DNA from: a phage
NCBI GenBank assembly: GCA_024613925.1
Contig: GCA_024613925.1_4713.1
Direction: 5' to 3' (one strand)
Length of the DNA: 64,000 nucleotides
The first letter of the stretch is position 1. The number at the start of each line of letters is the position of its first letter. Positions 1,097 through 64,000 of this stretch are shown here, in pieces. The notes beneath the pieces were generated by a model. The model was not told the DNA's origin. It did no database searches and worked only from the letters and a program-made list of their open reading frames with translations. Position numbers and translations under genes: made by a program.

Positions 1097-1165
1097 TTGG
1101 GATTCCTCTTTTCTTAAACTTTATTAAATGACGTCATTGAATCAGCTTCTACTCGCTCATTCACC

Positions 1166-1200
1166 TAGGTAATATAACCCTGAAATTTTTTTCAATATTG
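1166..1200 (-). promoter_or_regulatory. early-promoter-like element (sense: TATTGAAAAAAATTTCAGGGTTATATTACCTA), core TATATTAC
   Basis: 35-nt element conserved in three copies (also 30177-30212, 53366-53400), each 70-120 nt upstream of a minus-strand start; core matches the phiKZ early promoter consensus as I recall it. Confidence 0.45.
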
Positions 1201-1350: not shown

Positions 1351-2445
1351 ATGTTTCGTGTTTTAAATAACCTCCCGCGAACATCATCGGGTGTGCAACC
1401 CGTCCCTCAGAAAGACTATCTAATACGCGAAGTTCAAAGAAACCTACAGACAATCCAGAACCACTATCAAGGTTTTACCTTCGCGGTTCAGAGCGATCAC
1501 ATCCTTGCGTTGCTGCTCGCACAGCTCCCTATGAGATACGACATCTCAGTACAAACTTACTACGACATGATTCTCGATCTTACCCCAGAATTGGGTAATC
1601 GTGTCAAGTTGACAACATCAAGATACGCGGGTAAGTTATTCGACGGTGCTTTCTATCCGGGATTGCACGAAGCTATTATCGCAACCGGTGAAAGTCGTCT
1701 TATTTCACGTGACATTCTTGACAACTGGCGTAATTGGTCGCCGGTTAGAATCGTGACGCACCCGTACGCAAATCTTCGTTACATTCCTCTTCACCGAAAG
1801 CCGGTTGAAGAAGGACGAGGTTTTGCGGTCATTATGGTTGATGTACCTTTATTAGCGCTACAGTATCGAATGTGGTCTTTGGTCATGGGTCATAACGTCG
1901 ACGGTAAATGGGTGGTTAAAGAACCGGTTACAAGCTTCCTTGCGAGTTTTCCGTTGGTTAACGCATTATACTCACACAACGATGTTGTTATACGCAATCG
2001 TTGTTTATGGGTATCTCCGGCTAAGAATCCACTCAAATCACCCATTTACGTTAACGACCTTGATAACGTATTCAGCCAAGTCGTTCTGTCCGTACAGCAT
2101 CATTTATTACGCAGAAGACGAAGCTACACCGACATGCTTAAACAGATACCGAGTTTATACGGGGATCAGTACCAAGCAACCCGAATGGGTTACACCGTCG
2201 ATCTTCGACAAACACGATGGGCAAGGGATCTGGGTTGTCTGTCATTATGGCAACAACTCGTCACATTGCAAAACGTATCTGAAAGCGTCGGGTTCAGCAG
2301 TCAAGTCGATAATGACCTGTACCGTGCTGCCGACCGGAGTCTAAAAGAAGGTAACTGGGAATCCTCTCCGTTACCTGGTGATTTAAGACGTGAAGTTATC
2401 GCACAGGTTGCCGACCTCTTAAAAATTCTTCCTGCTGGTGCATAA
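1351..2445 (+). CDS. hypothetical protein (364 aa)
   Basis: ORF with GGAG RBS 5 nt upstream of ATG; followed by hairpin terminator. Confidence 0.55.
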   Translation: MFRVLNNLPRTSSGVQPVPQKDYLIREVQRNLQTIQNHYQGFTFAVQSDHILALLLAQLPMRYDISVQTYYDMILDLTPELGNRVKLTTSRYAGKLFDGAFYPGLHEAIIATGESRLISRDILDNWRNWSPVRIVTHPYANLRYIPLHRKPVEEGRGFAVIMVDVPLLALQYRMWSLVMGHNVDGKWVVKEPVTSFLASFPLVNALYSHNDVVIRNRCLWVSPAKNPLKSPIYVNDLDNVFSQVVLSVQHHLLRRRRSYTDMLKQIPSLYGDQYQATRMGYTVDLRQTRWARDLGCLSLWQQLVTLQNVSESVGFSSQVDNDLYRAADRSLKEGNWESSPLPGDLRREVIAQVADLLKILPAGA

Positions 2446-2450
2446 TCACC

Positions 2451-2508
2451 TCCCTCTTCCCTCGCATCCTCCCAACCCGTAAGGGAAGGGAGGATGGGGT
2501 GGTGGATT
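2451..2508. terminator. GC-rich nested hairpin (core ATCCTCCC-AACCCGTAAGGGAA-GGGAGGAT), bidirectional terminator between convergent genes
   Basis: Perfect 8-bp stem plus inner CCC/GGG pairs and GTAA loop; 36-nt core identical to 63941-63976. Confidence 0.55.
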
Positions 2509-2511
2509 ATG

Positions 2512-4665
2512 TTACTCTGCGGTTTCTCGCTTCGGTAAATAACTTGCTGCGATGTCTTGGGCTAACAATGTATTGTTTTTATTCGAGATGAAAATACCGT
2601 AACTTTCCATTAACGCGTAATACGAACGAACGAGCGTAGAGATCAATCGACGAATATCCATACCTTGAATAAAGATATCAGGAAGCCCGGAGGCTTCGAT
2701 CACCGGTAATGGTATCGTTAAGTTGCTTATCGTTTTCTTATCGTTACGTACAATCCAATCACGGAAACGTTGTTGTAACCCTTTATCCTCCCAGGAATCA
2801 ATCCAATCGTTAAGAAGCGTTTTGTTCTTCGTCGCCAACGGCACACGAACCCCAACATAGGGTGGTTCCTGGCAATGGCCGTACGATTGAGCAAACACCT
2901 CTTCCCACATATCGTAAGACTGTTTCGTTACCGCAACATGTGGTTTCACTTTAACACGTGTTAAGAAATCAGGATCACCACGTTTCATGGACTCAACGAT
3001 TTCGTTTTCTAACGAGATAATATCGTCAAGAACCAATCGAATGCTGATCTTCTCATTACGTAACAGCTTATCCATGATACCGCACATCATGCGTTCAACA
3101 CGTTTGACGATCATTTTTGGTGCTGACGCATCACGCATAACCGGACCTTTCAATTCCAGCTTCGGTGGATTGATAGGAACCCCTTCACGCATGGTCATGT
3201 AACCGTAATAGTTTTTACCCATCGAGGTTAACGACAGAATCAAGAACATATATTCGTTCTTCATTTCCATCACGTACATATGCTCTTTCGCTACACCGAT
3301 ATTACCAGAACACATCGCCATCAGATGAACCGTAATCTGCGTAACCAGATAGATAAGCGTGTTTGCTAAGCGCGTCGAAACTGGATTGATCTCCATATTT
3401 CCAAATCGCCACTGAACCCACTCCTGGCAGGTAAACACCGTCGAGTCGGTATCAGACAACACGCCCACTTCACGGATTGCCGACGGAAAAGCATAAACGC
3501 CAGCCGGTTGGTTCTCGGTACGCCAGAACGCCATAATCAAGTCAGCATAACTTTGGATGCGTTGCAGCATTAATTTTGTTGTTGCTGCGGTAAGACGATA
3601 ACCAAGCTCATTTCCTTTTTCTAGCGCTACGTAAATCGCTTCCCCATTCAAGAACTCCGTGCATTGTGCTGTAATCCAAGCGACCGTGTTGTTATCCATG
3701 GAAGCAATAATGGCTTTAGCCTCTTCCATCGTTTCAACAGGTTCGGATGCCAGCTCACACAACGAGTCAAGAAAATCTCGAACAAATTCAGGATTAAGCT
3801 CACGTAACGAGTACAGGTTATTGCTGTACATGTAGCAGGCGCGTTCCAACGGCGTTAAACCGGTAATTAACTCCCGGATAGTCAGTTCTTTCTCTGGGTC
3901 GAAAGTATACCGATGTAAGCATTTCGATACGTTAGCCCAAACCTCTTCCGGCGTAGGGTAATGCAGTTTGTATTTTACCATTACCTGCTCAATGGCTTTA
4001 CGATCGCTGTTACGGACGATGCTTACGATGTTTTCAATTGCGATATCACAATCGTAATAATGGAAATTGCCCGCAAGGAAGCGTTCGTTGTTCGCATTGG
4101 CTGAACCTGAAGCACAGCGACATGTTGTCGTTAGACTCGGATGCGCAATCGGATTATAAAAAGGGTTGAACTTGGACGCCTGGGTTCCTGACAAACTGTT
4201 GTTGTCTAACTTGGTGTTGGTTTGTCGTTTATCGTGTAGCTCCGCTTCGTCTTTACGTCCGTGTGCTTGCGCTATCGACATTTGTTTCTTTTGTTTCTTA
4301 CGCAACTTACCGTTTTCAACCGCAAAGTCGCTTAGCACACTGGAACGTGTTTCACGTGGATAACAGTTAGCCCACACCGGCGTGATAATTAAATTATTTT
4401 CTTTAATATCGTTGAAGTATTGGCTGAACTTGATGACTTCTTTTTCTCGATTTCCTTCGGTACGCTGCGTTAGTACAAGGCAGTCGGGATCAACCATCCC
4501 GTATTTTCCACCAGGACGAACCGTTTCAAGAACAAACTGCAACGCTTCCTGCTGAGATATCCCACGCATGCGCATTAAGAACAGGGTATAATCCTGTACC
4601 GCTTCTTTGGTCATATCCAACGTACGACCATATCCGTTTTCATCGTAAAAGAACGGATTTTCCAT
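2512..4665 (-). CDS. hypothetical protein (717 aa) with DTDS motif; possible divergent polymerase/nucleotidyltransferase-like
   Basis: Long ORF, GGAGG RBS; motif GVLSDTDSTVF at about residue 405 and KNYYG about 80 aa later; no clear motif A aspartate. Confidence 0.55.
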   Translation of the reverse strand: MENPFFYDENGYGRTLDMTKEAVQDYTLFLMRMRGISQQEALQFVLETVRPGGKYGMVDPDCLVLTQRTEGNREKEVIKFSQYFNDIKENNLIITPVWANCYPRETRSSVLSDFAVENGKLRKKQKKQMSIAQAHGRKDEAELHDKRQTNTKLDNNSLSGTQASKFNPFYNPIAHPSLTTTCRCASGSANANNERFLAGNFHYYDCDIAIENIVSIVRNSDRKAIEQVMVKYKLHYPTPEEVWANVSKCLHRYTFDPEKELTIRELITGLTPLERACYMYSNNLYSLRELNPEFVRDFLDSLCELASEPVETMEEAKAIIASMDNNTVAWITAQCTEFLNGEAIYVALEKGNELGYRLTAATTKLMLQRIQSYADLIMAFWRTENQPAGVYAFPSAIREVGVLSDTDSTVFTCQEWVQWRFGNMEINPVSTRLANTLIYLVTQITVHLMAMCSGNIGVAKEHMYVMEMKNEYMFLILSLTSMGKNYYGYMTMREGVPINPPKLELKGPVMRDASAPKMIVKRVERMMCGIMDKLLRNEKISIRLVLDDIISLENEIVESMKRGDPDFLTRVKVKPHVAVTKQSYDMWEEVFAQSYGHCQEPPYVGVRVPLATKNKTLLNDWIDSWEDKGLQQRFRDWIVRNDKKTISNLTIPLPVIEASGLPDIFIQGMDIRRLISTLVRSYYALMESYGIFISNKNNTLLAQDIAASYLPKRETAE

Positions 4666-10942: not shown

Positions 10943-11466
10943 TTAACAACAGCTTCCTCCCTCGGTGTTTTCGAGGGAGGTATTTGCCGTTTGAACACTT
11001 TCAGCACGTTCGCAAAATCAGCAGCAATAATACAGGCCGAGGCTGATAGCTTATTGCTGAAAATGAGATCGTCCGGTAAACAATCGAACTGAATACCATA
11101 TTGCGTCTTTGTCTCATCAACGATCAGTGACGGTGTCGATCCTGTCTTCGCGATGTCGGTGATATACAAACGTAAAAATAATTCACCGTCTTCGCTATCC
11201 ATAAAACGATAGGCGTTACCAGAAAACGCAACACTTGGCGTAACGATAAATTGAACACGATCGTCGGTCGGATGGATATTTAACCAACGTTCGATATCAC
11301 TGCTACTCACATTCCGCATATTTACTACGGTAAAAGCAAATAGCGTATCGTGATGTTTGGAATAATGCAGCACATACGCCGCACCTTTCTTTTTGTGAAT
11401 CCCTTCAATGTATTCTATTGTCGTATAGCCGGATTTATATAGCTTTACTTGCGGTTTATCACTCAT
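10933..11466 (-). CDS. hypothetical protein; start set at ATG 11466 (TGATG coupling)
   Basis: Track ORF runs to 11550, but the internal ATG overlaps the stop of upstream gene by 1 nt. Confidence 0.45.
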   Translation of the reverse strand: MSDKPQVKLYKSGYTTIEYIEGIHKKKGAAYVLHYSKHHDTLFAFTVVNMRNVSSSDIERWLNIHPTDDRVQFIVTPSVAFSGNAYRFMDSEDGELFLRLYITDIAKTGSTPSLIVDETKTQYGIQFDCLPDDLIFSNKLSASACIIAADFANVLKVFKRQIPPSKTPREEAVVNQK

Positions 11467-17195: not shown

Positions 17196-17347
17196 CAATG
17201 TAACGGTAAAACTTTACTGACGTTGGTTATTATTTGAAGCATAGGGCTTCACCCAGGAGTACCATCCCTTTAAGTCGTTTGTCCTCTCCTGGTTAACTGT
17301 CGTTCTCTCACAGTGCTCGACAGACCAAAAATGCTCAGGCCTCATAG

Positions 17348-17376
17348 CCTCCTCTGGGAATGGAACCCAGAGGAGG
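17348..17376. terminator. hairpin CCTCCTCTGGG-AATGGAA-CCCAGAGGAGG
   Basis: 11-bp perfect stem between convergent genes 15957-17195 (+) and 17389-17709 (-). Confidence 0.5.
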
Positions 17377-17388
17377 ACTATGTTTGCC

Positions 17389-24395: not shown

Positions 24396-25323
24396 GGCAT
24401 GCCTCCAGGAGGTATTTCATGTTGGCTTGGAAATCATTGACGTCACGCGCCATACGACGCTGATCCGCCATGAGACGAGCCAACACGGTATCACGGTAAC
24501 CACGATCGTGGTCGGCAGCAGAGCATAAAAGAATAAATGTTGGTGGATGCTCTAAAGCAATCCCAGCAACTTCTTTACTATAACCCCCAACCCAACTGTA
24601 AGCGGTGATTTCAAACAACAACGCCTGGGTTAACGTGTTCAAACGGGGACTAATATTACTTTCTTTTAATGCTGTTACGAAAGCTGCCATGTTAGGGATA
24701 TAACCCAGGTTTTCGGTTACGATACCGATGCTCGCAAAATCGTAACGAAGCGTTGTCTGGATGGTGCGCACCATAGTTAGTCTTTCATTATTTGTAAGGC
24801 TATCTTTAAACAAGCAAAGATAATACCATGCTGTTATGATGGCAACATCACGACGTTGTTGAAGGTCCAGCCCTAAACGTTGTGTGATTTGTCCGCTAAT
24901 CCAATCACAAAAGACACGCATCGGGATAGGGCCAAGACGTTCAAAAGGACGTGTGCCCAAGGATTCCCATCCTACCTGAAGATACGCACGTGATTGAAGA
25001 AAGTTATATTCACGTTCGTTAACAACGGTAGTACGCGATCCTGGGCGTGAAGTATCTGTTGGGGTGCGTGCGTAAGCGCGTTGGTCGATAACAACGCGCT
25101 GTCCGTCCATCACTGTTTTAATGACCAACGGATGGCCGAAAGAAGGGATATCGTCCAACGTATTTTTGTTGCCGATGACTTCGAGAACGGGAGTGTTTAC
25201 GCCACTTTCTTCACCGGGTGCACTTAACAATCCGCCGACGTAAGCAACTTCGATAGCGGTTCGGATACGGTCAATGCCTTTTAGTTTTGTTCCAACAGTT
25301 GTGTCGTAAGGAGAGATGAACAT
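24376..25323 (-). CDS. hypothetical protein (315 aa)
   Basis: ORF; TATG-class motif 22 nt upstream. Confidence 0.5.
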   Translation of the reverse strand: MFISPYDTTVGTKLKGIDRIRTAIEVAYVGGLLSAPGEESGVNTPVLEVIGNKNTLDDIPSFGHPLVIKTVMDGQRVVIDQRAYARTPTDTSRPGSRTTVVNEREYNFLQSRAYLQVGWESLGTRPFERLGPIPMRVFCDWISGQITQRLGLDLQQRRDVAIITAWYYLCLFKDSLTNNERLTMVRTIQTTLRYDFASIGIVTENLGYIPNMAAFVTALKESNISPRLNTLTQALLFEITAYSWVGGYSKEVAGIALEHPPTFILLCSAADHDRGYRDTVLARLMADQRRMARDVNDFQANMKYLLEACRGVERF

Positions 25324-27554: not shown

Positions 27555-28445
27555 ATGCGTCCTGATAATACCCTACTCGGTGAACAGGGTGTTGGTGCTC
27601 TTAGCAACGCGGCTATGGTCGATATTCGTGCGGGTGCCCAAAACGGGTACATCAGCAATATCGGTACGTACGTTGCTAACGCCAACTACATTCCGAACCA
27701 AATGTTCTGTCTCCTGCTGGAGGCACCACGTGGTTTCAACTATCTACCTAACCCGGATGTACAGATTGGTTATCTGAAGGCGCTGGTAGAAGAGGTTGCG
27801 CATTCGATTACCGGTCTGCAACGCGGACTGGAAGTTGAATTCGTTAGCGTCCCGGTTTCTGGTTCCGGTGAAATCCAGGAAGAAGTCTCTGACGTTAAAC
27901 GTCCTCGCTCTAACCCGACTTTCGGGATCTATGAGAAAGAAGGTCGTTCCGTTAGTTACTTCCTGGAACAATGGATCACGTATCTGTTGATGGATCCGGA
28001 TGCCAAATATCCGATGTTGTCGTCTATCGTATCCACCGGTGGTCCAACCGACCTGCTGGCGGATTATCGTAGCGCAACAATGCTGTTCGTTGAGCCAGAC
28101 CGTCAACACAAGAAAGTGGTTAACGCCTGGCTGTGCACGAACATGATGCCTCACGGTACCGGTGACTGGACATCACGTCGTAACAAGAACGATGCGCCAA
28201 ACGTGGTAGAATTGAGCATTCAGTTCACTGCGTTAACACAGACCAACTATGGCGTGCGTGCTTTTGCACAACGTCTGCTGGATAAGATGAACCTGCTTAA
28301 AGTGAACCCGGATTTCCGTCCGGCTTATCTGAGTGACATCGATCCGGCTGTGGCAGCGCAGAAGGTTGGCTATACCTTCGACTTTGATAACAACGATACC
28401 TTTGAGGTACCGAATACTTATCAAAACGTAACACCTCGCGTGTAA
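27555..28445 (+). CDS. putative tail tube protein (296 aa)
   Basis: Tightly coupled downstream of the sheath-like gene; GAGGAG RBS; terminator follows. Confidence 0.4.
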   Translation: MRPDNTLLGEQGVGALSNAAMVDIRAGAQNGYISNIGTYVANANYIPNQMFCLLLEAPRGFNYLPNPDVQIGYLKALVEEVAHSITGLQRGLEVEFVSVPVSGSGEIQEEVSDVKRPRSNPTFGIYEKEGRSVSYFLEQWITYLLMDPDAKYPMLSSIVSTGGPTDLLADYRSATMLFVEPDRQHKKVVNAWLCTNMMPHGTGDWTSRRNKNDAPNVVELSIQFTALTQTNYGVRAFAQRLLDKMNLLKVNPDFRPAYLSDIDPAVAAQKVGYTFDFDNNDTFEVPNTYQNVTPRV

Positions 28446-28468
28446 CGTAAAAAAAAAAAGCATATTAA

Positions 28469-28509
28469 CCTCCCTTCCTTCCCTAGCCGTCAAGGCCGGG
28501 GAAGGAAGG
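28469..28509. terminator. GC-rich nested hairpin CCTTCCTTCCC...GGGAAGGAAGG flanked by A-tract (plus) and T-tract (minus)
   Basis: 11-bp stem with inner GCC/GGC; between convergent genes. Confidence 0.55.
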
Positions 28510-28521
28510 TTTATGGTTTAT

Positions 28522-29061
28522 TTACTGTGTGTTCTTAGCTTCACGAATGAAAATGACATCAGGATATTCTTGGGATTCAATGAATTCAGGATTACGATAA
28601 CGACGAATATGACGCATCGTTGTACAAGCAAGTTTGTAAAGATGTTCCTCCTCACGTTGTGTTAATAACATCAGTTGCGCGTCTGGAATCACGAACGGGA
28701 GTCTTTCACGCACATATTCCTGAAGGTCATCGAGATCATCGTGATGAATGCCCTCTGAGAGCTTATATAACGCTTCCAGCAATTCTAATCCACCGAACTG
28801 GTAACTTCCTATTGTTGTCTTAAACAGTGCGCCAGAACGCGTGGTGGATGCTCTATCGGCGACATCGTATTGTTCTAACATATATCCGTAGACCATGCTA
28901 CGTCGATCCAGTGTATCCGTAACGAGATTACGCCACCGTTCCAATCTTTCGAGCGCTTTGTCGATAGAGTAAACGATCATGCCATGTTCATCCAACTCTT
29001 CCGCAATACCCAATAGTTCGTTGTTGTTAGGTTTTGCTGCACCGATAAGAAAAACACTCAT
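28522..29061 (-). CDS. hypothetical protein (179 aa)
   Basis: ORF; TAATG coupling with upstream gene. Confidence 0.5.
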   Translation of the reverse strand: MSVFLIGAAKPNNNELLGIAEELDEHGMIVYSIDKALERLERWRNLVTDTLDRRSMVYGYMLEQYDVADRASTTRSGALFKTTIGSYQFGGLELLEALYKLSEGIHHDDLDDLQEYVRERLPFVIPDAQLMLLTQREEEHLYKLACTTMRHIRRYRNPEFIESQEYPDVIFIREAKNTQ

Positions 29062-29474: not shown

Positions 29475-29577
29475 AGCGCTAACCCCAAAGGATAAAAATA
29501 AAACCTTGACATAACCACCACCGCAACCCCATACAGGGCTACGGTGGGGTCATACAGAGAGACGTGTTAGGTTACAA

Positions 29578-30057: not shown

Positions 30058-30176
30058 GTTAATACTCCAATTAGTTTTTTCGATCGATCAAAAGGATAAA
30101 ATCAGAAGATTCTTTCTTCATAGGGAAAACACAAGTCGGTTAAGGTTTACTTCTTAAACTCCTTGCGTTCTATCAG

Positions 30177-30212
30177 TTAGGTAATATAGACCTCAACTTT
30201 TTTCCAATAATG
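30177..30212 (-). promoter_or_regulatory. early-promoter-like element (sense CATTATTGGAAAAAAGTTGAGGTCTATATTACCTAA)
   Basis: Second copy of the 35-nt element; overlaps the last codons of gene 30193-30993. Confidence 0.45.
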
Positions 30213-31081: not shown

Positions 31082-31095
31082 GACGGCATAAAAAG
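31082..31095 (-). promoter_or_regulatory. TATG-class promoter-like motif (sense CTTTTTATGCCGTC)
   Basis: Motif family member immediately 3' of hairpin 31098-31123. Confidence 0.4.
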
Positions 31096-31097
31096 TA

Positions 31098-31123
31098 CCT
31101 CCTTACCCACATGGGTAAGGAGG
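31098..31123 (-). terminator. hairpin CCTCCTTACCC-ACAT-GGGTAAGGAGG
   Basis: 11-bp perfect stem followed by T-tract on minus strand. Confidence 0.5.
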
Positions 31124-31275
31124 TTCGTCCATCACGACGAAAGGACGTTATGTGACGCGGTGTCCATAACGGCCCTGGTAGCAGGCATTAAAGATAACAA
31201 AAAGGATGTAAGTTGAGCTAAACCACCTAAATACGGTAACGATTACTTCCGTACACAATATAACGCAACATCTTT

Positions 31276-36597: not shown

Positions 36598-37090
36598 TCT
36601 CTTGGGCGAATTTAGTTCTTATTCAACATAATCGTACTATTACCAGAATAAGACTGAGATTAGATTGTTCAGATAAGGTCGTTAATCTTATCCCGGAGGC
36701 GACGATAGGCACATCACCTCCCGCTTGCGCTCTCACGCAAGAGCAGACTATATCACATCTCGTTTCAAACGGTGCTTCTTCAGCACCTCAACGAGAGTTC
36801 ACTTCTTCCCAGCGCATCCAGCGCCATTCTCTTATCCAAGGAGAATGCCTCACTCGAGGGGTACAGGGGGATGAATCCCTTAGTCGTTGAACCTTTACCT
36901 TAGAACGCTTCACAGCGATCCTTAGGTACTTGGCTGCGGATTGTCCTTAAGCTATTATCTGTTTTTATAACCATACCGTCTTTCTTTTCAGAATCCGTTT
37001 TGGTCGATAACAGCGATGGATGTCTTCGCAATTCAGTGAATCTCATCTACATGTCGCCACATAGACGGACCCTGCTATTAAAAGCGTTAA
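36545..37090 (-). ncRNA. group I self-splicing intron (no intron ORF); boundaries approximate
   Basis: On minus strand in order: P-like AATTGCGAAG (37024-37033), Q AATCCGCAGCC (36932-36942), R GTTCAACGACTA (36881-36892), S GATATAGTCTG (36744-36754); flanking ORFs together give a contiguous RNAP beta sequence. Confidence 0.6.
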
Positions 37091-40000
37091 TCATCTCTAT
37101 CAGCAGCAGGTACTGCAAGCGCCGACGTACTCATTATTGACGAGCTACCATCCGTTTTCTCGTCGTAAGGTTTCGTTTCACCGTATACAGACACAATGTT
37201 TGCGTTAGGTGCGAGGTAAGCAGAAATACCTACGTCCCCACTATCCTTCGTACCTTCGGATACAACACCAATGTCCGACTTGTCGTATTCACGATCGCGT
37301 GCGCGTCGAAGCGATGTCTTTGAACGACCCCCGATACCGGTCATCGTCGCTTCTTCACCCTGCTTGATATCCAGCATCGGGTTGGTTTCATCGATTACGA
37401 TGGAAGCGCTGTCGTCGAGAATCTGGTTCCAGACGCTTACCGGACTGATTGAGATTTTCTGGCGGTTTCCTTGACTGCTGTTCTCATTCTGACGAATAGC
37501 GCCAACCAGATCCTTATACACCAACTCAGCGAACTTATCGTACGTTTTAAAACGTTGGTAGTTCACATCGTTCGTGTTAGGTGCCCAATCATCCAGAAGC
37601 AGTTCGACGGCACGCAGTAACAACATGGCGAAATCGGTAGGTTCTCCCATGTTCTGCAGCAACGTACGGCTTACCGGATCAACGAAAAGACGCTCCATGA
37701 GTTCAAGTTCGCGTAAATGGCGAACCTTAAGTCCAGCCCCATCGACAACGTTAAAATAGATATCTCGATTGTCAAAAGCGCCGCGAGCGTAACCAATGTA
37801 GTTACGGTATTCGTTAAACCCACCCAGCAACAACGTCGTCATGCGATCGTCTTTACTGAAGATCAGACTTTCGTCGTCAAAGCTCACCGCGAATTCATCG
37901 GGTGCTAACCCCATACGAGAGCCGCGAGGTACCGTACGATAGTTCGCTTTAAGATGTTCTAATAACGGGGTAAGCCCACCCAGATAACTTAGAACAACAC
38001 CGACCGGAATACGTACACCCATGAATTCAAGATCGGCGGCTTCGATCGGCATCTTAGCCGCATTGATACCGAAGAAATCAGGGAACGTCCCTACAGGTGT
38101 TGGTGTTTGTCCTGACTGACAGATATAGAGCTGATTGCGTTTATCGATTGCTAAGAATTCACCCAGCGTGTTACGCGCAAACGTCAGGAGTCCTTCGGCT
38201 AACTGTTCGTTGAACCGATCTTCCCCAATGAACTCCGGCAATGTCTTTGTATCGAGACGTATATCCCAATCAGCAAATTGGATTTGGGTATAGTTGCGTG
38301 CAAGCACAGCGAAGTAATACGGAACTTTGACAGCTGGATCAAAGACGTTACCACGTTTCAACGTGGTTAAGGGTGAGGACTTATCGTAATACATCGCCGT
38401 AAGTTGACGTGTTAGCCAACGACCCGCATTATTAACGACACGCTCTGAACGTTTAACAAACACCTTACCGTAGGCGGTACTCAACGCAACTTCAGATGAC
38501 GATACCTTTCTAATAGGTTTATCAACACGTTGTTTACGCATCCGGTATTTGATGCCGTTAACGACATAAATGCCGTCCTTACGAACCTTCGGCAACATCA
38601 CCGGGAACGTGGTCGGGACACCGCCTACAGGAGCCAGTTTAATCGTGATGACTTGATAATCCCCCATCACGTCAACAACATCTTCAACTTTATATCCCGT
38701 GACAGGGTAACCTGCCTGCTGTACCGCAACGACGGCAGCTGCGATGTCCTTTTGCATTACGTGTTCAACGTAATGTTTATCCCACACCGCAAGCGTCGAT
38801 TTACACAGGCTCTTATCGACGATAACATCCGCTTCCGGCATAACCTTTGCAGGCGCTAATTTTGCGGCTTTTGGTTTAACTTCAACATACTCAGCAAGTG
38901 TTAATCCAGAACCGTCGGGTGCTTCGATTTCATGGATGGCGTCAGCATTACGCATCGCTGCTTTATATTGGACACCGCTTAACTGACCCGCATCCGCCAG
39001 ATCGCTCGCGCGTACCAACACCGCATCCGATAACGACTGAATATATTCGCCATGCGTTTTCGGTAACGTTGCCGCGTCAAAGACATCAACCTTTTCTTCT
39101 TCGGTATCGTCGGTAACGACTTCGAAGAGATCGTCGGTAATGTCCTGATCTTCATCGGGCTGGAAATCTGGTTGTACTTCTACCCCGGGTACTTCACGGA
39201 CATCTTCGAACGAGCGTTCTACAATGGCGTTCCACGCATCGGCATCATCGTCTTCATCCGACCCACCGACCAACTCCGCTTCTAACTCGTCGGGATCAAG
39301 AACGGTAGCGAGATCCTCACCGTTAGGAAGCACGACGTCGCGATCATCATACTCCGCATCCGGGCTGTCCGCAAGAATATCTCGCTCTTGACGAAGAACC
39401 TGTTCCTCTTCTTGTTTCTGTTCTTCTTCATTCGCGCTCTGCGACCACAGACGTGTTACCGCCATCATCCAACGACGTTGGAAGGTTTCAAGTGTCGTTT
39501 TATCGAGTTCTTCCCCTTCCTTCACAAGTCCGGTACGCCATTCTTCCAGCAGGCCGAGATTCAGCGTAAAGAAGTACACACCGTCTGTAAATACGATGTT
39601 AAGCTTATCCAGCGTGGCTCTGTCTAACGAAGCCATCGTGCTGTTCTCACGATCGGTTCCCAACCAGCGGAAGAAGTCAAAGAACGACAGCTCCTCCGGT
39701 GTGGCGAAATTCATGAGGTTATTACGGGTCGGTGCCTGTTGCGTGGTACGCATCAACGAAATCTTCGGCAATGTTGACGGTATACGGAACAACAAAAAGT
39801 GTTGGCGATCGCTTTGCTGTGCGATTTCGTTGGCTTTCGACCAAATTGTTTTACGTACGTTGAACCATTCATCATACCAACGGGTGAGCGTTGGACGATA
39901 AATGTACATGTGGTTAAGATGCGCGTAGTTAGCAACGATCTGAGCGTTGATGTTTTTCTCCACCGTGCTTAGATCGGTAACCAAACGAAAACGACGATGT

Positions 40001-48857: not shown

Positions 48858-48868
48858 TCATTAGTTAA

Positions 48869-48887
48869 GGGCGGGAGATTCCCGCCC
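48869..48887 (+). terminator. hairpin GGGCGGGA-GAT-TCCCGCCC followed by T-rich tract
   Basis: 8-bp GC stem directly after the stop of the 2221-aa gene. Confidence 0.5.
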
Positions 48888-48906
48888 TCTTCTTGAGGAA
48901 TGTTAC

Positions 48907-51048
48907 ATGGGTATTCTTGTTCAAAACGCCCTAATAACCAAACAAGCGTTTTTATTACCTGGCGATAGCAGCACGCTTAGTGCTGACATGATTAAAGCGA
49001 GACATACACCGTATTCCTACGATAACGTCGATGATACCACCTTAGGTGGGAACTGGGTGCTTAACCCGCCACCGCAATACACCAAATTTGCCGACATCAA
49101 AGAACGCCGACGTGCGGTTATGCCGGGATCAACAGGCATGGGTCGAGGCTACAGTGAAAGCATTAACAGCTTTAAAGAAGTCGTTACGTTACGATTCGGT
49201 AAACCTCGCTTTACAGGCGCAAGTATCTTCTTTACTGATTTCTACGATGCGGATGTTGCCGTAACGGTTAAAACCGGTCGCGATCCCGGTATTCTTTATT
49301 ACGCAGCCAAAGCGTATACCACCGTTCTTTCTTACCTCACGCCTCTACCTTACCTGTATATGGTTGGACGTATTGGTCGATATTTCCTGGGTAAACCTAC
49401 CAGTCAATATTACTATCAAGTACCAACCATGCACGTGTATTGGGCGTCTTTCCAGACGCTGGTAAACCAAACAGCGATAAACATGGGTCTTATCGCCGGT
49501 GCCGGTAAAGATAAAGGCTATGTGGAAGAAGGGGGTACCGTACTCCACCAATATTCAATCGGTGGTCAGAACGTTGAAGAATTCATCAACTACGCCTCTA
49601 AGACACTACCGGGGATTTATAAGAAAGGTGGTGGGATCGATATCTATCAGATCGCAACACGCCGTCAGCGTATACAGAACGCATGGGTACGCCGTATTCA
49701 ATCCATGATGGAAAACGATTACTCGTCTTACGAGGAGTTCTGGAACGATCTTGATAAACGACTTGATAGCGGGGCATTTCCATCGGATGTGACAGGTCGT
49801 ACGTTAACGCAGTATCTCGCCGACACACAGAAGTCTGCTGTTTACAGTGCGACAGCTGGTGATAATAAACAAACGATGGACGACCTTTTATTCGGAAGGG
49901 CCACATACACCAACAAGGATGCTGATGCCAACTTCAATGTCTCGGCGGCTACCTCCGACGGCGGTACGTCAACACAGAGTCAGGGCACAACAGCCAATGT
50001 CGGTAATTCAACATCGGGGACAACGCAGGCTTCAACAGCAGCATCCACGGCTGGAGGCGCGAACGTACAGAGCAAAGGAATCGGACAAACGAATGCAGCC
50101 GAAGAAGCTACGTTTCTTGATCTGATGGATGCTGAACTGGCTGACGGTGCTCAGTTCATCAGTTTTCGAGTCGACTCTGTCACCAGTGTAACCGAAACGT
50201 TTTCAAACAGCGCATCAGAAAGTTCAATCGCGCAGACGATGAACAGTCGTGCGCAAGCGAACATCGAACGTCGTTTCACCCTTTCCGGTGGTAATACAGG
50301 TTGGGCTATATTGGACGAAGCAATCAAAGCCGGTTCCGATCTCGTTAATGGCGCTATTTCCGGGATGGGCCTGGATGGTATTTTTGGTGCTTTCATGGGT
50401 TCCGGCTTCGCAGACATTCCGAAATTCTATTCTGGGTCGTCAGTAAGTCTACCGCGTGCCGATCTGACGATGGAATTGCGTTCCTGGAGCGGGGATCGTT
50501 GGTCGATCTTTACGAACCTCATGGTACCTCTTTTAGCCATTCTTGCAGGTGGTTTACCTCAGGCTACCGGTAAATCGTCCTACGGGATGCCGTTCATGTG
50601 TGAGTGTTATATTCCCGGTAAAGTCCAGATTAAAATGGGTCTTATCGATAACATCACTGTGACTCGCCATGTTGGAAACGTACCATCAACACGCGAGCGA
50701 TTACCGTTGGGTATCGATGTCAGCTTCAGTGTTTATGACCTGTCGTCCATCGTCGCCATGCCGATCACAACGACAGCCGCATCGATCGCAAAATTGGATC
50801 CTCGTGGCTTCTTAAGCGATCTTCTTGCTGACGATACGCCACTCAACAACTATCTTGCTGTATTATCGGCATTGACGCTTACGGAACAAGTTTACATGAT
50901 TCCGGATTTAAGTCGTCGTATGCATAAAACCATGGCTGATATCGATAGTTTCTGGAGCAAAGGTAATTTTGCTAGCTGGTTGTCTGACACCATGCCTGGC
51001 AGGATAGCATCAGGGCTGTTATGGAAACGCACAGAACGACCGTTCTGA
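48907..51048 (+). CDS. putative virion structural protein (713 aa)
   Basis: GAGGA RBS; directly downstream of the giant virion protein; S/T/G/A-rich central segment. Confidence 0.5.
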   Translation: MGILVQNALITKQAFLLPGDSSTLSADMIKARHTPYSYDNVDDTTLGGNWVLNPPPQYTKFADIKERRRAVMPGSTGMGRGYSESINSFKEVVTLRFGKPRFTGASIFFTDFYDADVAVTVKTGRDPGILYYAAKAYTTVLSYLTPLPYLYMVGRIGRYFLGKPTSQYYYQVPTMHVYWASFQTLVNQTAINMGLIAGAGKDKGYVEEGGTVLHQYSIGGQNVEEFINYASKTLPGIYKKGGGIDIYQIATRRQRIQNAWVRRIQSMMENDYSSYEEFWNDLDKRLDSGAFPSDVTGRTLTQYLADTQKSAVYSATAGDNKQTMDDLLFGRATYTNKDADANFNVSAATSDGGTSTQSQGTTANVGNSTSGTTQASTAASTAGGANVQSKGIGQTNAAEEATFLDLMDAELADGAQFISFRVDSVTSVTETFSNSASESSIAQTMNSRAQANIERRFTLSGGNTGWAILDEAIKAGSDLVNGAISGMGLDGIFGAFMGSGFADIPKFYSGSSVSLPRADLTMELRSWSGDRWSIFTNLMVPLLAILAGGLPQATGKSSYGMPFMCECYIPGKVQIKMGLIDNITVTRHVGNVPSTRERLPLGIDVSFSVYDLSSIVAMPITTTAASIAKLDPRGFLSDLLADDTPLNNYLAVLSALTLTEQVYMIPDLSRRMHKTMADIDSFWSKGNFASWLSDTMPGRIASGLLWKRTERPF

Positions 51049-51063
51049 TATTCACTGCATAAA

Positions 51064-51097
51064 CCCCCTCTCCCTTCCCTGATGGGTTGGGAGAGGG
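51064..51097. terminator. GC-rich nested hairpin CCCTCTCCC...GGGAGAGGG
   Basis: 9-bp stem with inner CCC/GGG; between convergent genes. Confidence 0.5.
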
Positions 51098-51103
51098 ATT
51101 ATG

Positions 51104-52171
51104 TTAACCTAATGTCACCGTAGGTAAATCAGGATAAAGTTTCTTCAAGCCTGCCATCGTGGTGGTAGTTGTATAATTCTTACCCATCACAGCAAGAGAT
51201 GCGTATTTCCTACTGCGGGAGAAAAGGGAATAGAACCCACTGGATGTTTCCATCCACATCGTGAGGAGTTCTGCATCATTACCGTGATAGTTCGTTTTAC
51301 CCCATCCGGGTTTAAACGCATCGGCAAAATCAATTAAACGCGAGGCTTCAGCGTCGTATTCTTTAAGGGTAAGGTACGATGGGATACGGTAGTTACGGAA
51401 CAGTAACGTAATGAGTTCAGGGACAACGCTACGGGCACGTTCAGCCGTAATGAGTTCGGTGATAACAGCAGCTGTACGGAAATCGCCGTTAAGACCAACG
51501 CTGCTTAACGATTCCGCTAAAGTGGTTGCCATCGCCACTTTATCCTCCGCTGACCCAGAGTCATACAGACTACGTACATCGATATAGTTGCCTGCTAATG
51601 CGGCTTGACGAATCAACGACGTGACAACCGTCCGGTTCGTCTTATAGTCGTTGTAGCTGAATTCGGTTCGCGTTTTCCCTTGATCCTCGAGATACCGATC
51701 AACAATCGTCGACAGTTTATAATACTCATCGCCAGACATCAGACTATCGAGAAGCTTAACATTTCCATCTTTATCGATAAGCTTCCCTAACGCACCATTG
51801 GATTGCTGGTTAATGGTGCTGTAAATCTGGTCTTTTACTTGCGATAGGATGTTATCGGTTGACGATATATTCAGGCCAGTAACATCTTTGATCTTATTCA
51901 TCAACGCGTTTTCATTCAGGGAGATTTTGCCTCCGCCGATATCGATGAAAGAATTAAGATCGCTTATGGAAATCAGGTTTCCTGTTAACGCCGATAATGT
52001 ACTATTGATACTGTTCGTAATACTGCTACGAAAACTGGTTAACGCATCCGCCGCCGAAACAGCGGTACCGCTAACCGCTTTAAGGAGCGTATCACGCCCT
52101 GTCGAAAAATCGCTGGTGATGGTTTTGATCTTGGACGTATCTATACTCGGCAGTTTGTCGTAAAGACTCAT
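51104..52171 (-). CDS. putative structural protein (355 aa from ATG 52171)
   Basis: AGGAGG RBS 6 nt before ATG 52171 (track start 52222 overlaps hairpin and is rejected); S/T/N-rich. Confidence 0.5.
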   Translation of the reverse strand: MSLYDKLPSIDTSKIKTITSDFSTGRDTLLKAVSGTAVSAADALTSFRSSITNSINSTLSALTGNLISISDLNSFIDIGGGKISLNENALMNKIKDVTGLNISSTDNILSQVKDQIYSTINQQSNGALGKLIDKDGNVKLLDSLMSGDEYYKLSTIVDRYLEDQGKTRTEFSYNDYKTNRTVVTSLIRQAALAGNYIDVRSLYDSGSAEDKVAMATTLAESLSSVGLNGDFRTAAVITELITAERARSVVPELITLLFRNYRIPSYLTLKEYDAEASRLIDFADAFKPGWGKTNYHGNDAELLTMWMETSSGFYSLFSRSRKYASLAVMGKNYTTTTTMAGLKKLYPDLPTVTLG

Positions 52172-52200
52172 CACGTCCTCCTGAAAAAGAAAAAAGAAAT

Positions 52201-52211
52201 ACGGCATAAAG
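52201..52211 (-). promoter_or_regulatory. TATG-class promoter-like motif (sense CTTTATGCCGT)
   Basis: Motif family member between hairpin 52211-52236 and gene start 52171. Confidence 0.4.
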
Positions 52212-52236
52212 CCTACCCACACAATGGTGGGTAGGC
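52211..52236 (-). terminator. hairpin GCCTACCCAC-ACAATG-GTGGGTAGGC
   Basis: 10-bp perfect stem downstream of gene 52254-52766. Confidence 0.5.
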
Positions 52237-52253
52237 TAAGATCAACATCGATG

Positions 52254-53278: not shown

Positions 53279-53365
53279 GGCATCACCTATGTATCATTCT
53301 TGCAGGCATCAATGAAGCCATCACAAGAAGGTAACGTTATACGTCGCCTTCATGACAGTCATCAT

Positions 53366-53400
53366 GAAGGTAATATAGTCCTGTTATTTTTTTCAATACG
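53366..53400 (-). promoter_or_regulatory. early-promoter-like element (sense CGTATTGAAAAAAATAACAGGACTATATTACCTTC)
   Basis: Third copy of the 35-nt element with TATATTACC core. Confidence 0.45.
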
Positions 53401-59282: not shown

Positions 59283-59290
59283 CATAATAA

Positions 59291-59327
59291 CCCACCCTAC
59301 TACCCCGTTAAGGGCGGTAGGGTGGGA
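59291..59327. terminator. GC-rich hairpin CCCACCCTAC...GTAGGGTGGG
   Basis: 10-bp stem between convergent genes. Confidence 0.5.
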
Positions 59328-59333
59328 TAAGGT

Positions 59334-59765
59334 TTATTTGCCGTATAGATGTACCACTCGTTGTGTCGTAGGAACGCAGACTCTTACCAGGAGTTTCTTA
59401 ATCTCCTGACGAATCGTTGCTTTATCGTCATAATAAAGCCATGGTGGAACGCGCTGCATTATGCACTGCACAGCGTCATCGTAGTTTGTCGTCCCATTAA
59501 GTAACGTCTCACTATCCAGATCTTTCCATGCAGTAATACCAAGTCGCGCAGCAAACATCAACGCTGAAACCGACTCAGCTATCTCCAATCGCTCATTCAT
59601 ATCCGCAAGACCTTTTAGCATGATGTAATTATCATCATGCTGATGTAAGGTGCCATACAAACTTCCGAAGAGAAGTATGCGTTTAGCTTTTGCGGTTAAG
59701 AGGAACGATAGGAGAGCGTGTTTCAACGGTTGTTTCTCACGTTCTACCTGTTCGACCATCACCAT
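59334..59765 (-). CDS. hypothetical protein (143 aa)
   Basis: ORF. Confidence 0.45.
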   Translation of the reverse strand: MVMVEQVEREKQPLKHALLSFLLTAKAKRILLFGSLYGTLHQHDDNYIMLKGLADMNERLEIAESVSALMFAARLGITAWKDLDSETLLNGTTNYDDAVQCIMQRVPPWLYYDDKATIRQEIKKLLVRVCVPTTQRVVHLYGK

Positions 59766-61951: not shown

Positions 61952-63292
61952 ATGATTAGTATTTTTGGTTTTTATACGTACAAAGGGTACGCTAATAACC
62001 ACCCAAAAACCACGGCGAAATTCGGTGAGTTCAGTCAGCACAGTGCTACGTTCAGTCGCGAAATCGGCATCTATACCAACACGGCGTACGCACGTACGAC
62101 CTTATTAGTGTTGAATGCCGAAAACGAAGCTGGTGAAGCACAAACGCTGAATGACGACACCGCAGGCCGCATTCTTCAGGTTGGTCAATGGTTGCTGGAA
62201 AAAGCCGCATCGGGCGAAATCCAGGAAGACCGAGACCAAGTTATCAGTTACCTAAAAGACGACTTCACAACGTATCTGGATTCTATCGACATCCCAACAC
62301 CCACCACCGATGGTACCGTCTATCTACCGGCGTGGATCAGTTTCAAGATAACCGCCACCGGCGATGTTGTCAAGATTTGGTTGTCTGATAGCGTATTCCA
62401 AAGTCAATATCCAAAATACGAATATGAAGTCGTTCCCCCTGTTCCTAAGGATCAGTTAGATACCTTCTTCGAAGATCTGGCAACATTGAAGAAACTGGTT
62501 GACAGTCGAAGCAGCGAGAAACTGACCGAAGAAATCAACGAGGTGCGCGACCAATTCCCAGACACACAATTGTGGACGAAAACCTATAAAGCGTACGATT
62601 ACACCGACGATTCGAAATACATTAATACCGATTGGACGGTGATTATCTACGGTGCGGCAGGTAACAACATTGATAATATCAAGGAGTTCCTGCAAAACTG
62701 GATTCTTAGCAATAGCACACACGGACGTCCAGACTGGGAAATCGTTCTGCCGGATCTTTTTATCCCGACAGAACACATCTTCATCCCGATCTGGAACCGC
62801 CACAGTGCGCCAGAGATGACCAATCAGGCACGTATCTATAGTCCTATCTTCGATGATTCGTTGATGGATACCTACCTGAAAAACTTTGCTGACGGTTACG
62901 GTGAAACCGCCGAAGTCCGTAAGTCGCTTCAAGCGGTGCCGACGTTGTGGCGTTCGATCGGTTTCTTAAGTGTTGGTAACTCACGTAACCGTGACGGTAA
63001 ACTTAAGTTCTACGATCGTTGGCCACAATACGCGCTCATCAGCACAACCAGCATCGACATTAACCGTATCGATGATGCGACACGTGAATTCATCACGTTC
63101 ACTTACGAAATGCTGAAACTGGCAGAATCGCTCACCGAAGACGACCCGGTACCGTTGGGTTATAGTCGTGTTACGCGTGGTAGCAATAGCTTCTTAGCGA
63201 AAAGCCACAACGATGTTCAGTATCTCTTCTTAACAAAAGAAGCGTTCCTGAAGAAAATGCCGGATGAAGCCGACACGCCTGTTGGAGGTTGA
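61952..63292 (+). CDS. hypothetical protein (446 aa)
   Basis: GAGGA RBS before ATG 61952 (track start 61916 rejected). Confidence 0.5.
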   Translation: MISIFGFYTYKGYANNHPKTTAKFGEFSQHSATFSREIGIYTNTAYARTTLLVLNAENEAGEAQTLNDDTAGRILQVGQWLLEKAASGEIQEDRDQVISYLKDDFTTYLDSIDIPTPTTDGTVYLPAWISFKITATGDVVKIWLSDSVFQSQYPKYEYEVVPPVPKDQLDTFFEDLATLKKLVDSRSSEKLTEEINEVRDQFPDTQLWTKTYKAYDYTDDSKYINTDWTVIIYGAAGNNIDNIKEFLQNWILSNSTHGRPDWEIVLPDLFIPTEHIFIPIWNRHSAPEMTNQARIYSPIFDDSLMDTYLKNFADGYGETAEVRKSLQAVPTLWRSIGFLSVGNSRNRDGKLKFYDRWPQYALISTTSIDINRIDDATREFITFTYEMLKLAESLTEDDPVPLGYSRVTRGSNSFLAKSHNDVQYLFLTKEAFLKKMPDEADTPVGG

Positions 63293-63294
63293 TT

Positions 63295-63921
63295 ATGGCT
63301 GTAACACGCATGACGCCAAGTCCCGGTGCGGTCGGGGTTTTCACAGTATCAGCGCCGTTTACCGTTGGTGCGTCAACGCTATATACCGTTACAGCGTTGC
63401 GAAGATTCAGCGAAGTCATCGGTAGTGGAATCGATCTATTTACGGAACTGTACGAACCGTTATCAATAGACAAATCCACGTTCGAAGCGCATCTCGAAGC
63501 GAATGCTTATCTCGTCACGTTGCAACCGGATTACGGTGCGCCCGTACTGGTACCTGATACGTATATCACGTCGTACCCAAAGAACGATTCATTGCGGTAT
63601 CGTCGCATTATTCTGGGTATCGATTTCGGGCCTCTTCCTCCCGGTCTTGACCTTTCGTATCTAACAACGATATTGAAAGGTAAGGCCAGTGATATTCTTG
63701 GTGTCGAACCTGAAGTTAAAACGATGGAAATCACTCTCGATGATACCGTTACTCAGGAACAACATCAGATAAACGAAGCCCGTCGTCAGGCTGCGATAAA
63801 AGAGCGAGATACCATATACGCACGTTGTGAAACGCAAGAGAAGCAGATAACGGCTTTACTTGCAACCCAAAAGCAACTTATCAAATTGCTTCAAGACGCC
63901 GGTATCAACCCTACACCTTAA
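63295..63921 (+). CDS. hypothetical protein (208 aa)
   Basis: GGAGG RBS 8 nt before ATG 63295; followed by hairpin. Confidence 0.5.
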   Translation: MAVTRMTPSPGAVGVFTVSAPFTVGASTLYTVTALRRFSEVIGSGIDLFTELYEPLSIDKSTFEAHLEANAYLVTLQPDYGAPVLVPDTYITSYPKNDSLRYRRIILGIDFGPLPPGLDLSYLTTILKGKASDILGVEPEVKTMEITLDDTVTQEQHQINEARRQAAIKERDTIYARCETQEKQITALLATQKQLIKLLQDAGINPTP

Positions 63922-63927
63922 CATATT

Positions 63928-63986
63928 CCCTCCTCCTTCCCTTGCATCCTCCCAACCCGTAAGGGAAGGGAGGATGGGGAGGAGGG
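63928..63986. terminator. long GC-rich nested hairpin; second copy of the 36-nt palindromic core
   Basis: GCATCCTCCCAACCCGTAAGGGAAGGGAGGATGGGG identical to 2464-2499; outer arms CCCTCCTCC/GGAGGAGGG extend the stem. Confidence 0.55.
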
Positions 63987-64000
63987 TTATGCCGTCAAGC

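Follow-up and report, generated by a model that had tools for sequence, protein, structure and literature searches.

A repeated 36-nt palindrome in a Goslar-like jumbo phage is probably the core of two-way terminators whose hairpins exchange sequence

Results

The repeated palindrome and its convergent setting

The window, by which we mean the whole 64,000-nt stretch of DNA analysed here, is 97.5% identical to Escherichia phage vB_EcoM_Goslar (MK327938.1) and spans roughly 171.8-237.3 kb of that genome. Goslar is a 237-kb nucleus-forming jumbo phage of the Chimalliviridae, and Goslar-like phages are a main E. coli model of the phage nucleus. The RNA polymerase beta/beta'-like genes annotated in the Goslar region matching the window indicate that this phage, as a chimallivirus, has its own multisubunit RNA polymerases. 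The part of the window where, according to the same annotation, the RNA polymerase beta-like genes are located also contains a group I intron (36724-37091, minus strand; Rfam RF00028, 56 bits); it was the sole Rfam match in the window at gathering score, and the hairpins described below gave no match.

The 36-mer GCATCCTCCCAACCCGTAAGGGAAGGGAGGATGGGG has two exact matches in the whole window, at 2464-2499 and 63944-63979, both on the plus strand; allowing up to three mismatches gave no third match in the window, and 100 dinucleotide shuffles gave none at all. The first-pass annotation of this sequence had already reported the identical pair, with the second copy placed 3 nt too low (63941-63976). 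It had also described each copy as part of a longer imperfect palindrome, and this proved right: the likeness between the two loci spans 63 nt (2449-2511 vs 63929-63991, 90% identity), the 36-mer being the inner hairpin of a larger one. Hairpins of the same design, likewise proposed before, were confirmed at 28473-28509 and 51066-51097; the second of these has a core (51070-51093) with 92% complementarity to 2469-2492, which makes it a near reverse complement of the 36-mer core. The four sites, A to D, all lie between convergent genes, as judged by the stop codons on either side, and their stems are 6-27 nt from these codons on both sides. The features are as follows, the term terminator being used in the predicted sense.

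2441..2514, both strands: site A, composite two-way terminator between genes 1351-2445 (+) and 2512-4665 (-); stop codons 2443-2445 (+) and 2512-2514 (-)
2464..2499, plus strand: copy 1 of the 36-mer, with the core unit at 2465-2496
28461..28515, both strands: site B, two-way terminator between the phiKZ gp030 homologue 27555-28445 (+) and gene 28522-29061 (-); stop codons 28443-28445 (+) and 28522-28524 (-)
51058..51106, both strands: site C, two-way terminator between genes 48907-51048 (+) and 51104-52222 (-); stop codons 51046-51048 (+) and 51104-51106 (-)
63922..63991, both strands: site D, nested two-way terminator after gene 63289-63921 (+), stop codon 63919-63921 (+); the next gene, Goslar_00001, is on the minus strand past the window end
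63944..63979, plus strand: copy 2 of the 36-mer, exact match, within site D

Site A separates a conserved, virion-like gene (1351-2445) from a DNA polymerase gene (2512-4665; phrog match). Its inner 32-nt hairpin is enclosed by a weak outer stem (CACC-T-CCC / GGG-GTGG), with TTCCCTCG left unpaired as a bulge. The inner hairpin, the core unit at 2465-2496, reads CATCCTCCC-AA-CCC-GTAA-GGG-AA-GGGAGGATG; in it a 9-bp stem is separated by a 2x2 A.A internal loop from a 3-bp stem, which is capped by a GNRA-type loop. The 32-nt unit (CATCCTCCCAACCCGTAAGGGAAGGGAGGATG) is also found free-standing at Goslar 4149-4180. The site B hairpin (28473-28509) is CCTTCCTTCCC-TAGCC-gtcaa-GGCCG-GGGAAGGAAGG, a sub-type with two more copies in Goslar, at 11186 and 84366 (inverted). 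The site C hairpin (51066-51097), CCCTCTCCC-TT-CCC-tgat-GGG-TT-GGGAGAGGG, has its core in the opposite orientation, the Goslar core at this place being of the AA type. At site D the outer stem, in which CCCTCCTCC (63928-63936) pairs with GGAGGAGGG (63978-63986), encloses TTCCCTTG, the 32-nt unit and GGG. RNA folding, which had been suggested as a check, predicts structures at all four sites on both strands, with dG values of -27.6 to -44.6 kcal/mol and z scores of -3.3 to -6.5: -33.4/-33.1 at site A (z -3.3/-3.4), -31.3 on both strands at site B (z -5.1/-6.5), -30.8/-27.6 at site C and -44.6 on both strands at site D (z -5.0 to -5.3).

TATG follows the stems on the gene-downstream side

On all eight strand-sides of the four sites TATG is found 1-6 nt past the outermost stem, the CATA(A) on the other side being the TATG of the minus strand. 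Its positions are 2508-2511 (plus) and the complement of 2441-2444 (minus) at site A, 28512-28515 and the complement of 28461-28464 at site B, 51100-51103 and the complement of 51058-51061 at site C, and 63988-63991 and the complement of 63922-63925 at site D. Throughout Goslar, TATG starts at most 13 nt past the stem on 40 of 73 gene-downstream hairpin sides vs 8 of 45 other sides (Fisher 9e-5); against a background of 3.5%, the 40/73 corresponds to a binomial probability of 1e-38. The same tendency was observed in the window (13/21 gene-downstream sides vs 1/13 other sides). One-way sites behind minus-strand genes (31097, 52210 and 29518) have TATG on the minus side only, which implies that the symmetry of the convergent sites is no automatic by-product of the palindrome.

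The tail also has a longer form, TATGCYGT. TATGYYGT occurs at 58 sites in Goslar vs about 30 in shuffles, and approximately 26 of the 58 have a strong hairpin directly before them, hairpins of unrelated sequence included. The YYGT that follows TTATK is present on the plus side of site D (TATGCCGT) and at many other Goslar sites, and is absent or imperfect on the plus side of site A (TATGTTAC), the minus side of site C (TATGCAGT) and the plus side of site B (TATGGTTT). Among the 4-mers of Goslar coding regions, only CTAG is more strongly under-represented than TATG and CATA, on both strands (O/E 0.58-0.68, second-order Markov), which fits TATG as a signal word.

The idea that the ATG within TATG serves as the start codon of the next gene was rejected as a general rule, since it is true for only two tiny annotated ORFs, Goslar_00047 (49584-49772) and Goslar_00167 (152177-152272), which start at the ATG of a terminator TATG. 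Both are likely gene-caller artefacts in which the G-rich 3' arm (GGAGG) was taken as a pseudo Shine-Dalgarno sequence.

In phiKZ, TATG is the necessary core of late promoters, with +1 at the G, and the beta-like subunit GP123 of the non-virion RNA polymerase (nvRNAP) has, under the beta-lobe, a pocket in which non-template TATG is bound. Some of our sites could thus also start transcripts, and the hairpin with TATG might be mainly an nvRNAP late promoter or a terminator-promoter cassette giving antisense RNAs at convergent junctions; phiKZ makes antisense RNAs according to the literature, and the depletion of TATG/CATA in Goslar genes speaks for the word being a signal. We nevertheless regard this reading as quite improbable. 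TATG by itself is insufficient for initiation, and next to hairpins it is tied to the downstream, not the upstream, side of genes. Moreover, both TATGs at the four convergent sites point towards the 3' end of the opposing gene, a place at which a promoter would serve no gene, the one-way sites have TATG only on the transcribed side, and the hairpin-TTAT motif of phiKZ came from mapped 3' ends.

A separate 38-nt repeat has three copies in the window (1160-1197, 30172-30209 and 53361-53398) and contains AGGTAATATA followed by a T-run; on the minus strand it presents an A-rich stretch followed by TATATTACCT. This minus-strand reading resembles TATATTAC, the AT-rich early (virion RNA polymerase) promoter motif of phiKZ, and these repeats may be early promoters.

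Relation to the terminators of phiKZ and 201phi2-1

The first-pass annotation had considered the hairpins probable bidirectional intrinsic terminators. A two-way terminator agrees with the arm composition, the 3' TTATG and the position at gene ends, but the canonical intrinsic type does not hold, the U-tract being missing. As in a canonical Rho-independent bidirectional terminator, a stable GC-rich hairpin lies between convergent genes and folds on both strands; unlike it, the Goslar-type site has no U run, and its tail is (A/U)UAUG with only 2-3 U. At least five T within the 8 nt after the hairpin were not found at the sites, whose tails are ATTATGTT, TTTATGGT, ATTATGTT and TTATGCCG. A scan for hairpin plus T-run terminators and sigma-70 promoters did not list site A, and sites A, B, C and D are unmarked in the Goslar annotation; the absence of a U-tract explains why the standard scan and the annotation missed them.

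For phiKZ, 133 termination regions have been mapped by ONT-cappable-seq (Putzeys et al. 2024, PMC10914365). The majority of its predicted intrinsic terminators have a stem-loop and then TTAT, summarised by the consensus BCCYCCCCHWWDGGGRRGGBYTTATKYYGT that was obtained from mapped 3' ends, and six bidirectional terminators lie between convergent genes (PMC10914365). The same motif (motif A / A+B) was found in 201phi2-1 (n = 59, with 15 bidirectional sites), where eight terminators worked when placed in a reporter assay, the stronger ones being those with elongated composite stems (PMC11512511). The greater predicted stability of nested site D (dG -44.6) vs the single hairpin of site C (about -27 to -31) parallels the stronger composites of 201phi2-1.

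The Goslar-type sites share with this motif a GC-rich stem-loop in which TTAT(G/T), 1-4 nt past the stem and followed by YYGT on some sides only, takes the place of the U-tract; a position directly behind genes, bidirectional at convergent pairs; many copies per genome; and the occurrence of elongated stems. They differ in having stems of at least 12 bp vs 7 bp, a conserved 2x2 A.A/U.U internal loop, often a GNRA loop and, at some sites, a hairpin within a hairpin; furthermore, 3' ends have been mapped in phiKZ, whereas the Goslar type is known from sequence. The C/T-rich 5' arm and G/A-rich 3' arm (CCYCCC...GGGRGG) were found at all four sites, the 5' arms being 79-100% pyrimidine. The full 30-nt phiKZ consensus had no match in the window at up to three mismatches. 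It had no full match in phiKZ 1-50 kb either, which implies that the strict consensus is a logo summary and no rule of membership. Its 3' half is at chance level at three mismatches in the window, yet it picks up the minus side of site C, the plus side of site D, and the sites at 52201 and 31083.

The same scan applied to phiKZ 1-50 kb revealed CATAA-GCCCTCCC-loop-GGGAGGGC-ATTATG at the convergent pairs at 25214, 34917 and 43768, together with many one-way hairpin-TTATG sites. The likeness extends to individual genes: the DNA polymerase next to site A is orthologous to phiKZ gp050 (33% identity), behind which a CCTCCC/GGGAGG hairpin is also found, and the gp030 homologue next to site B (35% identity) has a terminator-type hairpin behind it in both phages. 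On this comparison, sites A to D would be Goslar-type members of a known chimallivirus terminator motif and, as such, ordinary for this phage family.

The wider hairpin family

A simple hairpin scan detected 17-22 strong hairpins in the window vs 1-4 in shuffles, and 88 in Goslar vs about 18 in shuffles. Approximately 16 Goslar sites have the form CCYTCYYCC-AA-CCC-GTAA/GTGA-GGG-AA-GGRRGARGG, and their outer arms covary: CCCTCCTCC/GGAGGAGGG, CCCTCTCCC/GGGAGAGGG, CCTTCCTCC/GGAGGAAGG and CATCCTCCC/GGGAGGATG. Among 25 distinct family members, whose choice favoured paired arms, 96% of the cells are paired, with double changes in 7 of 12 pairs and only 2 G-U cells; the near-absence of G-U pairs is the pattern expected if both strands must fold. 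This covariation could in part come from correction of palindromes at the DNA level, and not from selection on the RNA. Other members in the window are the following.

17343..17382, both strands: family member between convergent genes, CCTCCTCTGGG-aatggaa-CCCAGAGGAGG, with TATG 1-2 nt past the stem on both strands
59283..59340, both strands: family member between convergent genes, CCCACCCTACTACCC-cgttaa-GGGCGGTAGGGTGGG, with TTATG on the minus strand and TTTATTTGCCGT on the plus strand; marked as a terminator in the Goslar record
31083..31124, minus strand: one-way member behind a minus-strand gene, ACCTCCTTACCC-acat-GGGTAAGGAGGT followed by CTTTTTATGCCGT on the minus strand; plus side without TATG
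52201..52237, minus strand: one-way member behind a minus-strand gene, a hairpin followed by TTTATGCCGT on the minus strand only

A hairpin of opposite polarity was observed at 48868-48888, between co-directional plus-strand genes. It has a G-rich 5' arm (AGGGCGGGA) and a C-rich 3' arm, a CTTCTT tail without TATG, and a 3-nt loop that flips between strains; it may belong to a different signal class, e.g. an attenuator or a processing site.

Probable exchange of hairpin sequence among sites and strains

The window was aligned with Goslar and with two Goslar-like genomes from IMG/VR, IMGVR_UViG_3300045988_173921 (u45) and IMGVR_UViG_3300011560_000001 (u11); metagenome loci were then added, further Goslar-like genomes being OGZS01000006.1, ERZ1643250.25, ERZ1026852.3, ERZ1026903.5 and JACXXQ010000003.1. 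In this comparison with related phages, which the first-pass annotation had named as a check, family hairpins were found at the corresponding sites of Goslar-like strains. Site A is nested in every strain compared, and site D is variable among the six Goslar-like genomes from which its state was determined: it is plain in Goslar, u45 and u11 (CCCTCCTCC-TT-CCC-loop-GGG-TT-GGAGGAGGG), nested (TTCCCTTG, the 32-nt unit and GGG) in the window and in OGZS01000006.1, and nested with a flipped core in ERZ1026903.5. These states do not agree with the divergence of the flanks, as Goslar, 1.9% from the window, is plain and ERZ1026903.5, at 5.2%, is nested. The notion that the nesting of site D is a derived insertion was withdrawn, since the most divergent strain is also nested.

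The nested module also lies within other outer hairpins: MAVE01000145.1 and QZLZ01001428.1 have it at the Goslar-97.9 kb site, and ERZ1026852.3 has it at the 134.5 kb site. In all, this 43-nt module, TTCCCTTGCATCCTCCCAACCCGTAAGGGAAGGGAGGATGGGG, was found inside the loop regions of different terminator hairpins, at no fewer than four loci in different Goslar-like metagenome genomes, so that one hairpin lies within another. The loci, named by our own handles, are the following.

L044, 3353-3423: 43-nt module
L059, 2171-2239: 43-nt module
L063, near 11921: 43-nt module
L066, 1970-1989: 43-nt module
L068, 3412-3470: 43-nt module

The module junctions are identical across loci (TTCCCT|TGCATCC...GGATG|GGG) and fall in words common to all family members (CTTCCCT and GATGGG). 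Judged from the sequences, this pattern is a signature of ectopic conversion or template switching among low-complexity palindromes. The hairpins of the family would exchange sequence through their low-complexity arms by one of these two processes, and the 43-nt module would in this way have entered the loop regions of further hairpins of the family, as at site D. The exact conservation of the 36-mer had been read in the first-pass annotation as a hint of an added protein-binding or RNA-processing role. Such a role is not needed: copying of terminator hairpins from one another, of which the three plain and three nested states of site D are an example, would account for the identity, and the cores and loops themselves flip, as described below.

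The presence of one module with the same junctions in different outer hairpins, at four or more loci across strains, and its patchy presence and absence at site D, would also be expected of a small REP/RAYT-like or MITE-like mobile element of 32-43 nt that enters single-stranded hairpin loops, with the terminator position being secondary. Palindromes of the REP/BIME type in enterobacteria are alike in several respects: they are about 35 nt long, lie between convergent genes in numerous copies, fold with imperfect stems, occur in both orientations, and stabilise or terminate mRNA. They are, however, chromosomal and mobilised by RAYT transposase, whereas the Goslar core is absent from E. coli and the Goslar record, as far as annotation goes, lists neither a transposase nor a gene of the RAYT type. 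A search of 5,426 E. coli genomes gave no match to the core, and in 596 Gb of bacterial sequence (185,579 species genomes) its 20-mer had 4 matches with ~2 expected, which is chance level. In addition, the junctions fall in microhomology common to the family, as conversion or template switching predicts, and the stand-alone unit and the plain hairpins have the same functional flanks (TTATG). A mobile element is accordingly rather unlikely. An origin in the host, or identity with a REP sequence, was rejected on the absence of any E. coli match and the chance level of matches in bacterial genomes.

Flipping of cores and loops

Between strains that are 2-5% apart, asymmetric cores and loops were found as exact reverse complements of each other, with the arms unchanged. 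The flipped segments are the following.

Window, 2474-2487: flipped segment
Window, 28480-28494: flipped segment
Window, 29530-29535: flipped segment
Window, 31109-31112: flipped segment
Window, 48877-48879: flipped segment
Window, 51075-51088: flipped segment
Goslar, 76-81: flipped segment

At site A, AACCCGTAAGGGAA becomes TTCCCTTACGGGTT in u45; site B is flipped in u11, and site C in Goslar vs the other three. Flipped loops were also found at 29518, 31097, 48868, Goslar 68-89 and Goslar 132985. The pattern is incongruent between sites, which implies that flipping is recurrent, and one-way sites flip too. The imperfect arm at 29518 appears 'corrected' to a perfect palindrome in Goslar (CAACCC to TAGCCC). 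The flips and this arm correction resemble the hairpin microinversions of plastids and template switching at quasipalindromes. In plastids, too, the loop or centre of intergenic hairpins flips repeatedly and homoplastically with the arms unchanged (PMC5492656, PMC6444266); the replicon and the time scale differ, the phage genomes compared here being only 2-5% apart.

As a result of flipping, the transcript presents either the A.A/GUAA or the U.U/UUAC form, which argues against recognition specific to the loop or core. This bears on the reading that the core (CCC-AA-CCC-GNRA-GGG-AA-GGG) is, besides termination, a binding or processing site of a phage protein, e.g. for nuclear mRNA export or an RNase. 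The core is common to about 16 Goslar sites, its A.A internal loop is kept and not corrected to a perfect stem, and it recurs with different outer arms and a TTATGCTG tail in L019, a distant Goslar relative with 30-42% amino-acid identity and shared gene order. Single core matches in unrelated viral and metagenome contigs are at about chance level, some being ordinary U-tract terminators, and with the exception of L019 were left out. Even so, the core flips to U.U mismatches and a UUAC loop between strains at convergent and one-way sites alike, the loops vary (GTAA, GTGA, AACA, AGCA, ATCA, GTCA), the TATG tail also follows unrelated hairpins at many terminators, and sharing within the genome is explained by copying. 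According to the literature, eCLIP of ChmC in PhiPA3 revealed no motif, hairpin and terminator motifs included, and binding was near start codons. We thus consider a protein site unlikely; an extra role, such as protection of the 3' end of exported mRNA, may exist.

The Goslar record starts and ends within the site D hairpin, with a 55-nt overlap (1-55 = 237253-237307), which hints at a DNA-level site for packaging, replication or recombination, and the frequent loop inversions show that these palindromes form intrastrand DNA structures. On the other hand, an overlap of 55 nt between the ends is usual where a circularly closed assembly has been opened at an arbitrary place, about 60 similar intergenic hairpins lie at gene ends around the genome, and the TATG tail is strand-specific relative to transcription, so that a DNA-level site appears scarcely probable at all. 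Beside site D, just beyond window position 64000, a poly-A tract varies in length by strain (about A13 to A17), and it is followed by a second hairpin whose loop is flipped in u45.

Discussion

The 36-mer is most likely the core of a two-way Goslar-type terminator, and the identity of its two copies probably comes from ectopic exchange among the hairpins of one family. Such exchange has a counterpart in the PeSL cassettes of T4-type phages (PMC2839356, PMC4122927), which are likewise short, conserved regulatory stem-loops repeated in intergenic places and act as recombination substrates between distant loci of a large lytic genome. PeSL cassettes, however, combine a sigma-70 early promoter with the stem-loop, and their recombination leads to the gain or loss of whole genes, whereas in the Goslar type only hairpin sequence is seen to be exchanged and the polymerase is phage-encoded.

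The stop signal of chimalliviruses would consist of a GC-rich hairpin and, 1-6 nt beyond it, (T)TATG, at many sites extended to TATGCYGT, without a long U-tract. At convergent genes a palindrome flanked by CATAA and TTATG would let the transcript of each strand end in a hairpin and UUAUG. In the mechanism that we infer, the hairpin would fold in the nascent RNA at a time when the polymerase has slowed down on the weak rU/rA-rich hybrid at TATG; release of the transcript would follow, and its 3' end would be protected by the hairpin. The slowing may come from the beta-like subunit holding non-template TATG, as in promoter complexes. We tentatively propose that the elongating nvRNAP re-binds TATG and pauses while the hairpin releases the transcript, one word thus being the core of both promoter and terminator and the hairpins being a self-homogenising family; this proposal is possible, though it could well prove wrong. 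If true, the dual use of TATG would account both for termination in the absence of a U-tract and for the avoidance of this word throughout the genome, with a self-homogenising hairpin family, the copying of hairpin into hairpin and recurrent flipping as its corollary.

For annotation, a rule of the form "hairpin + TATG(CYGT)" would mark the ends of transcription units in Goslar-like phages. The GGAGG arm with ATG mimics a ribosome-binding site and seems to be the source of spurious mini-ORFs in the Goslar record. The natural plain, nested and flipped variants represent material with which the needs of the polymerase can be tested. Furthermore, phiKZ and Goslar have a stop-signal grammar in common even though their orthologues are only about 33-35% identical, and its retention across this distance suggests that the phage polymerase itself reads the signal.
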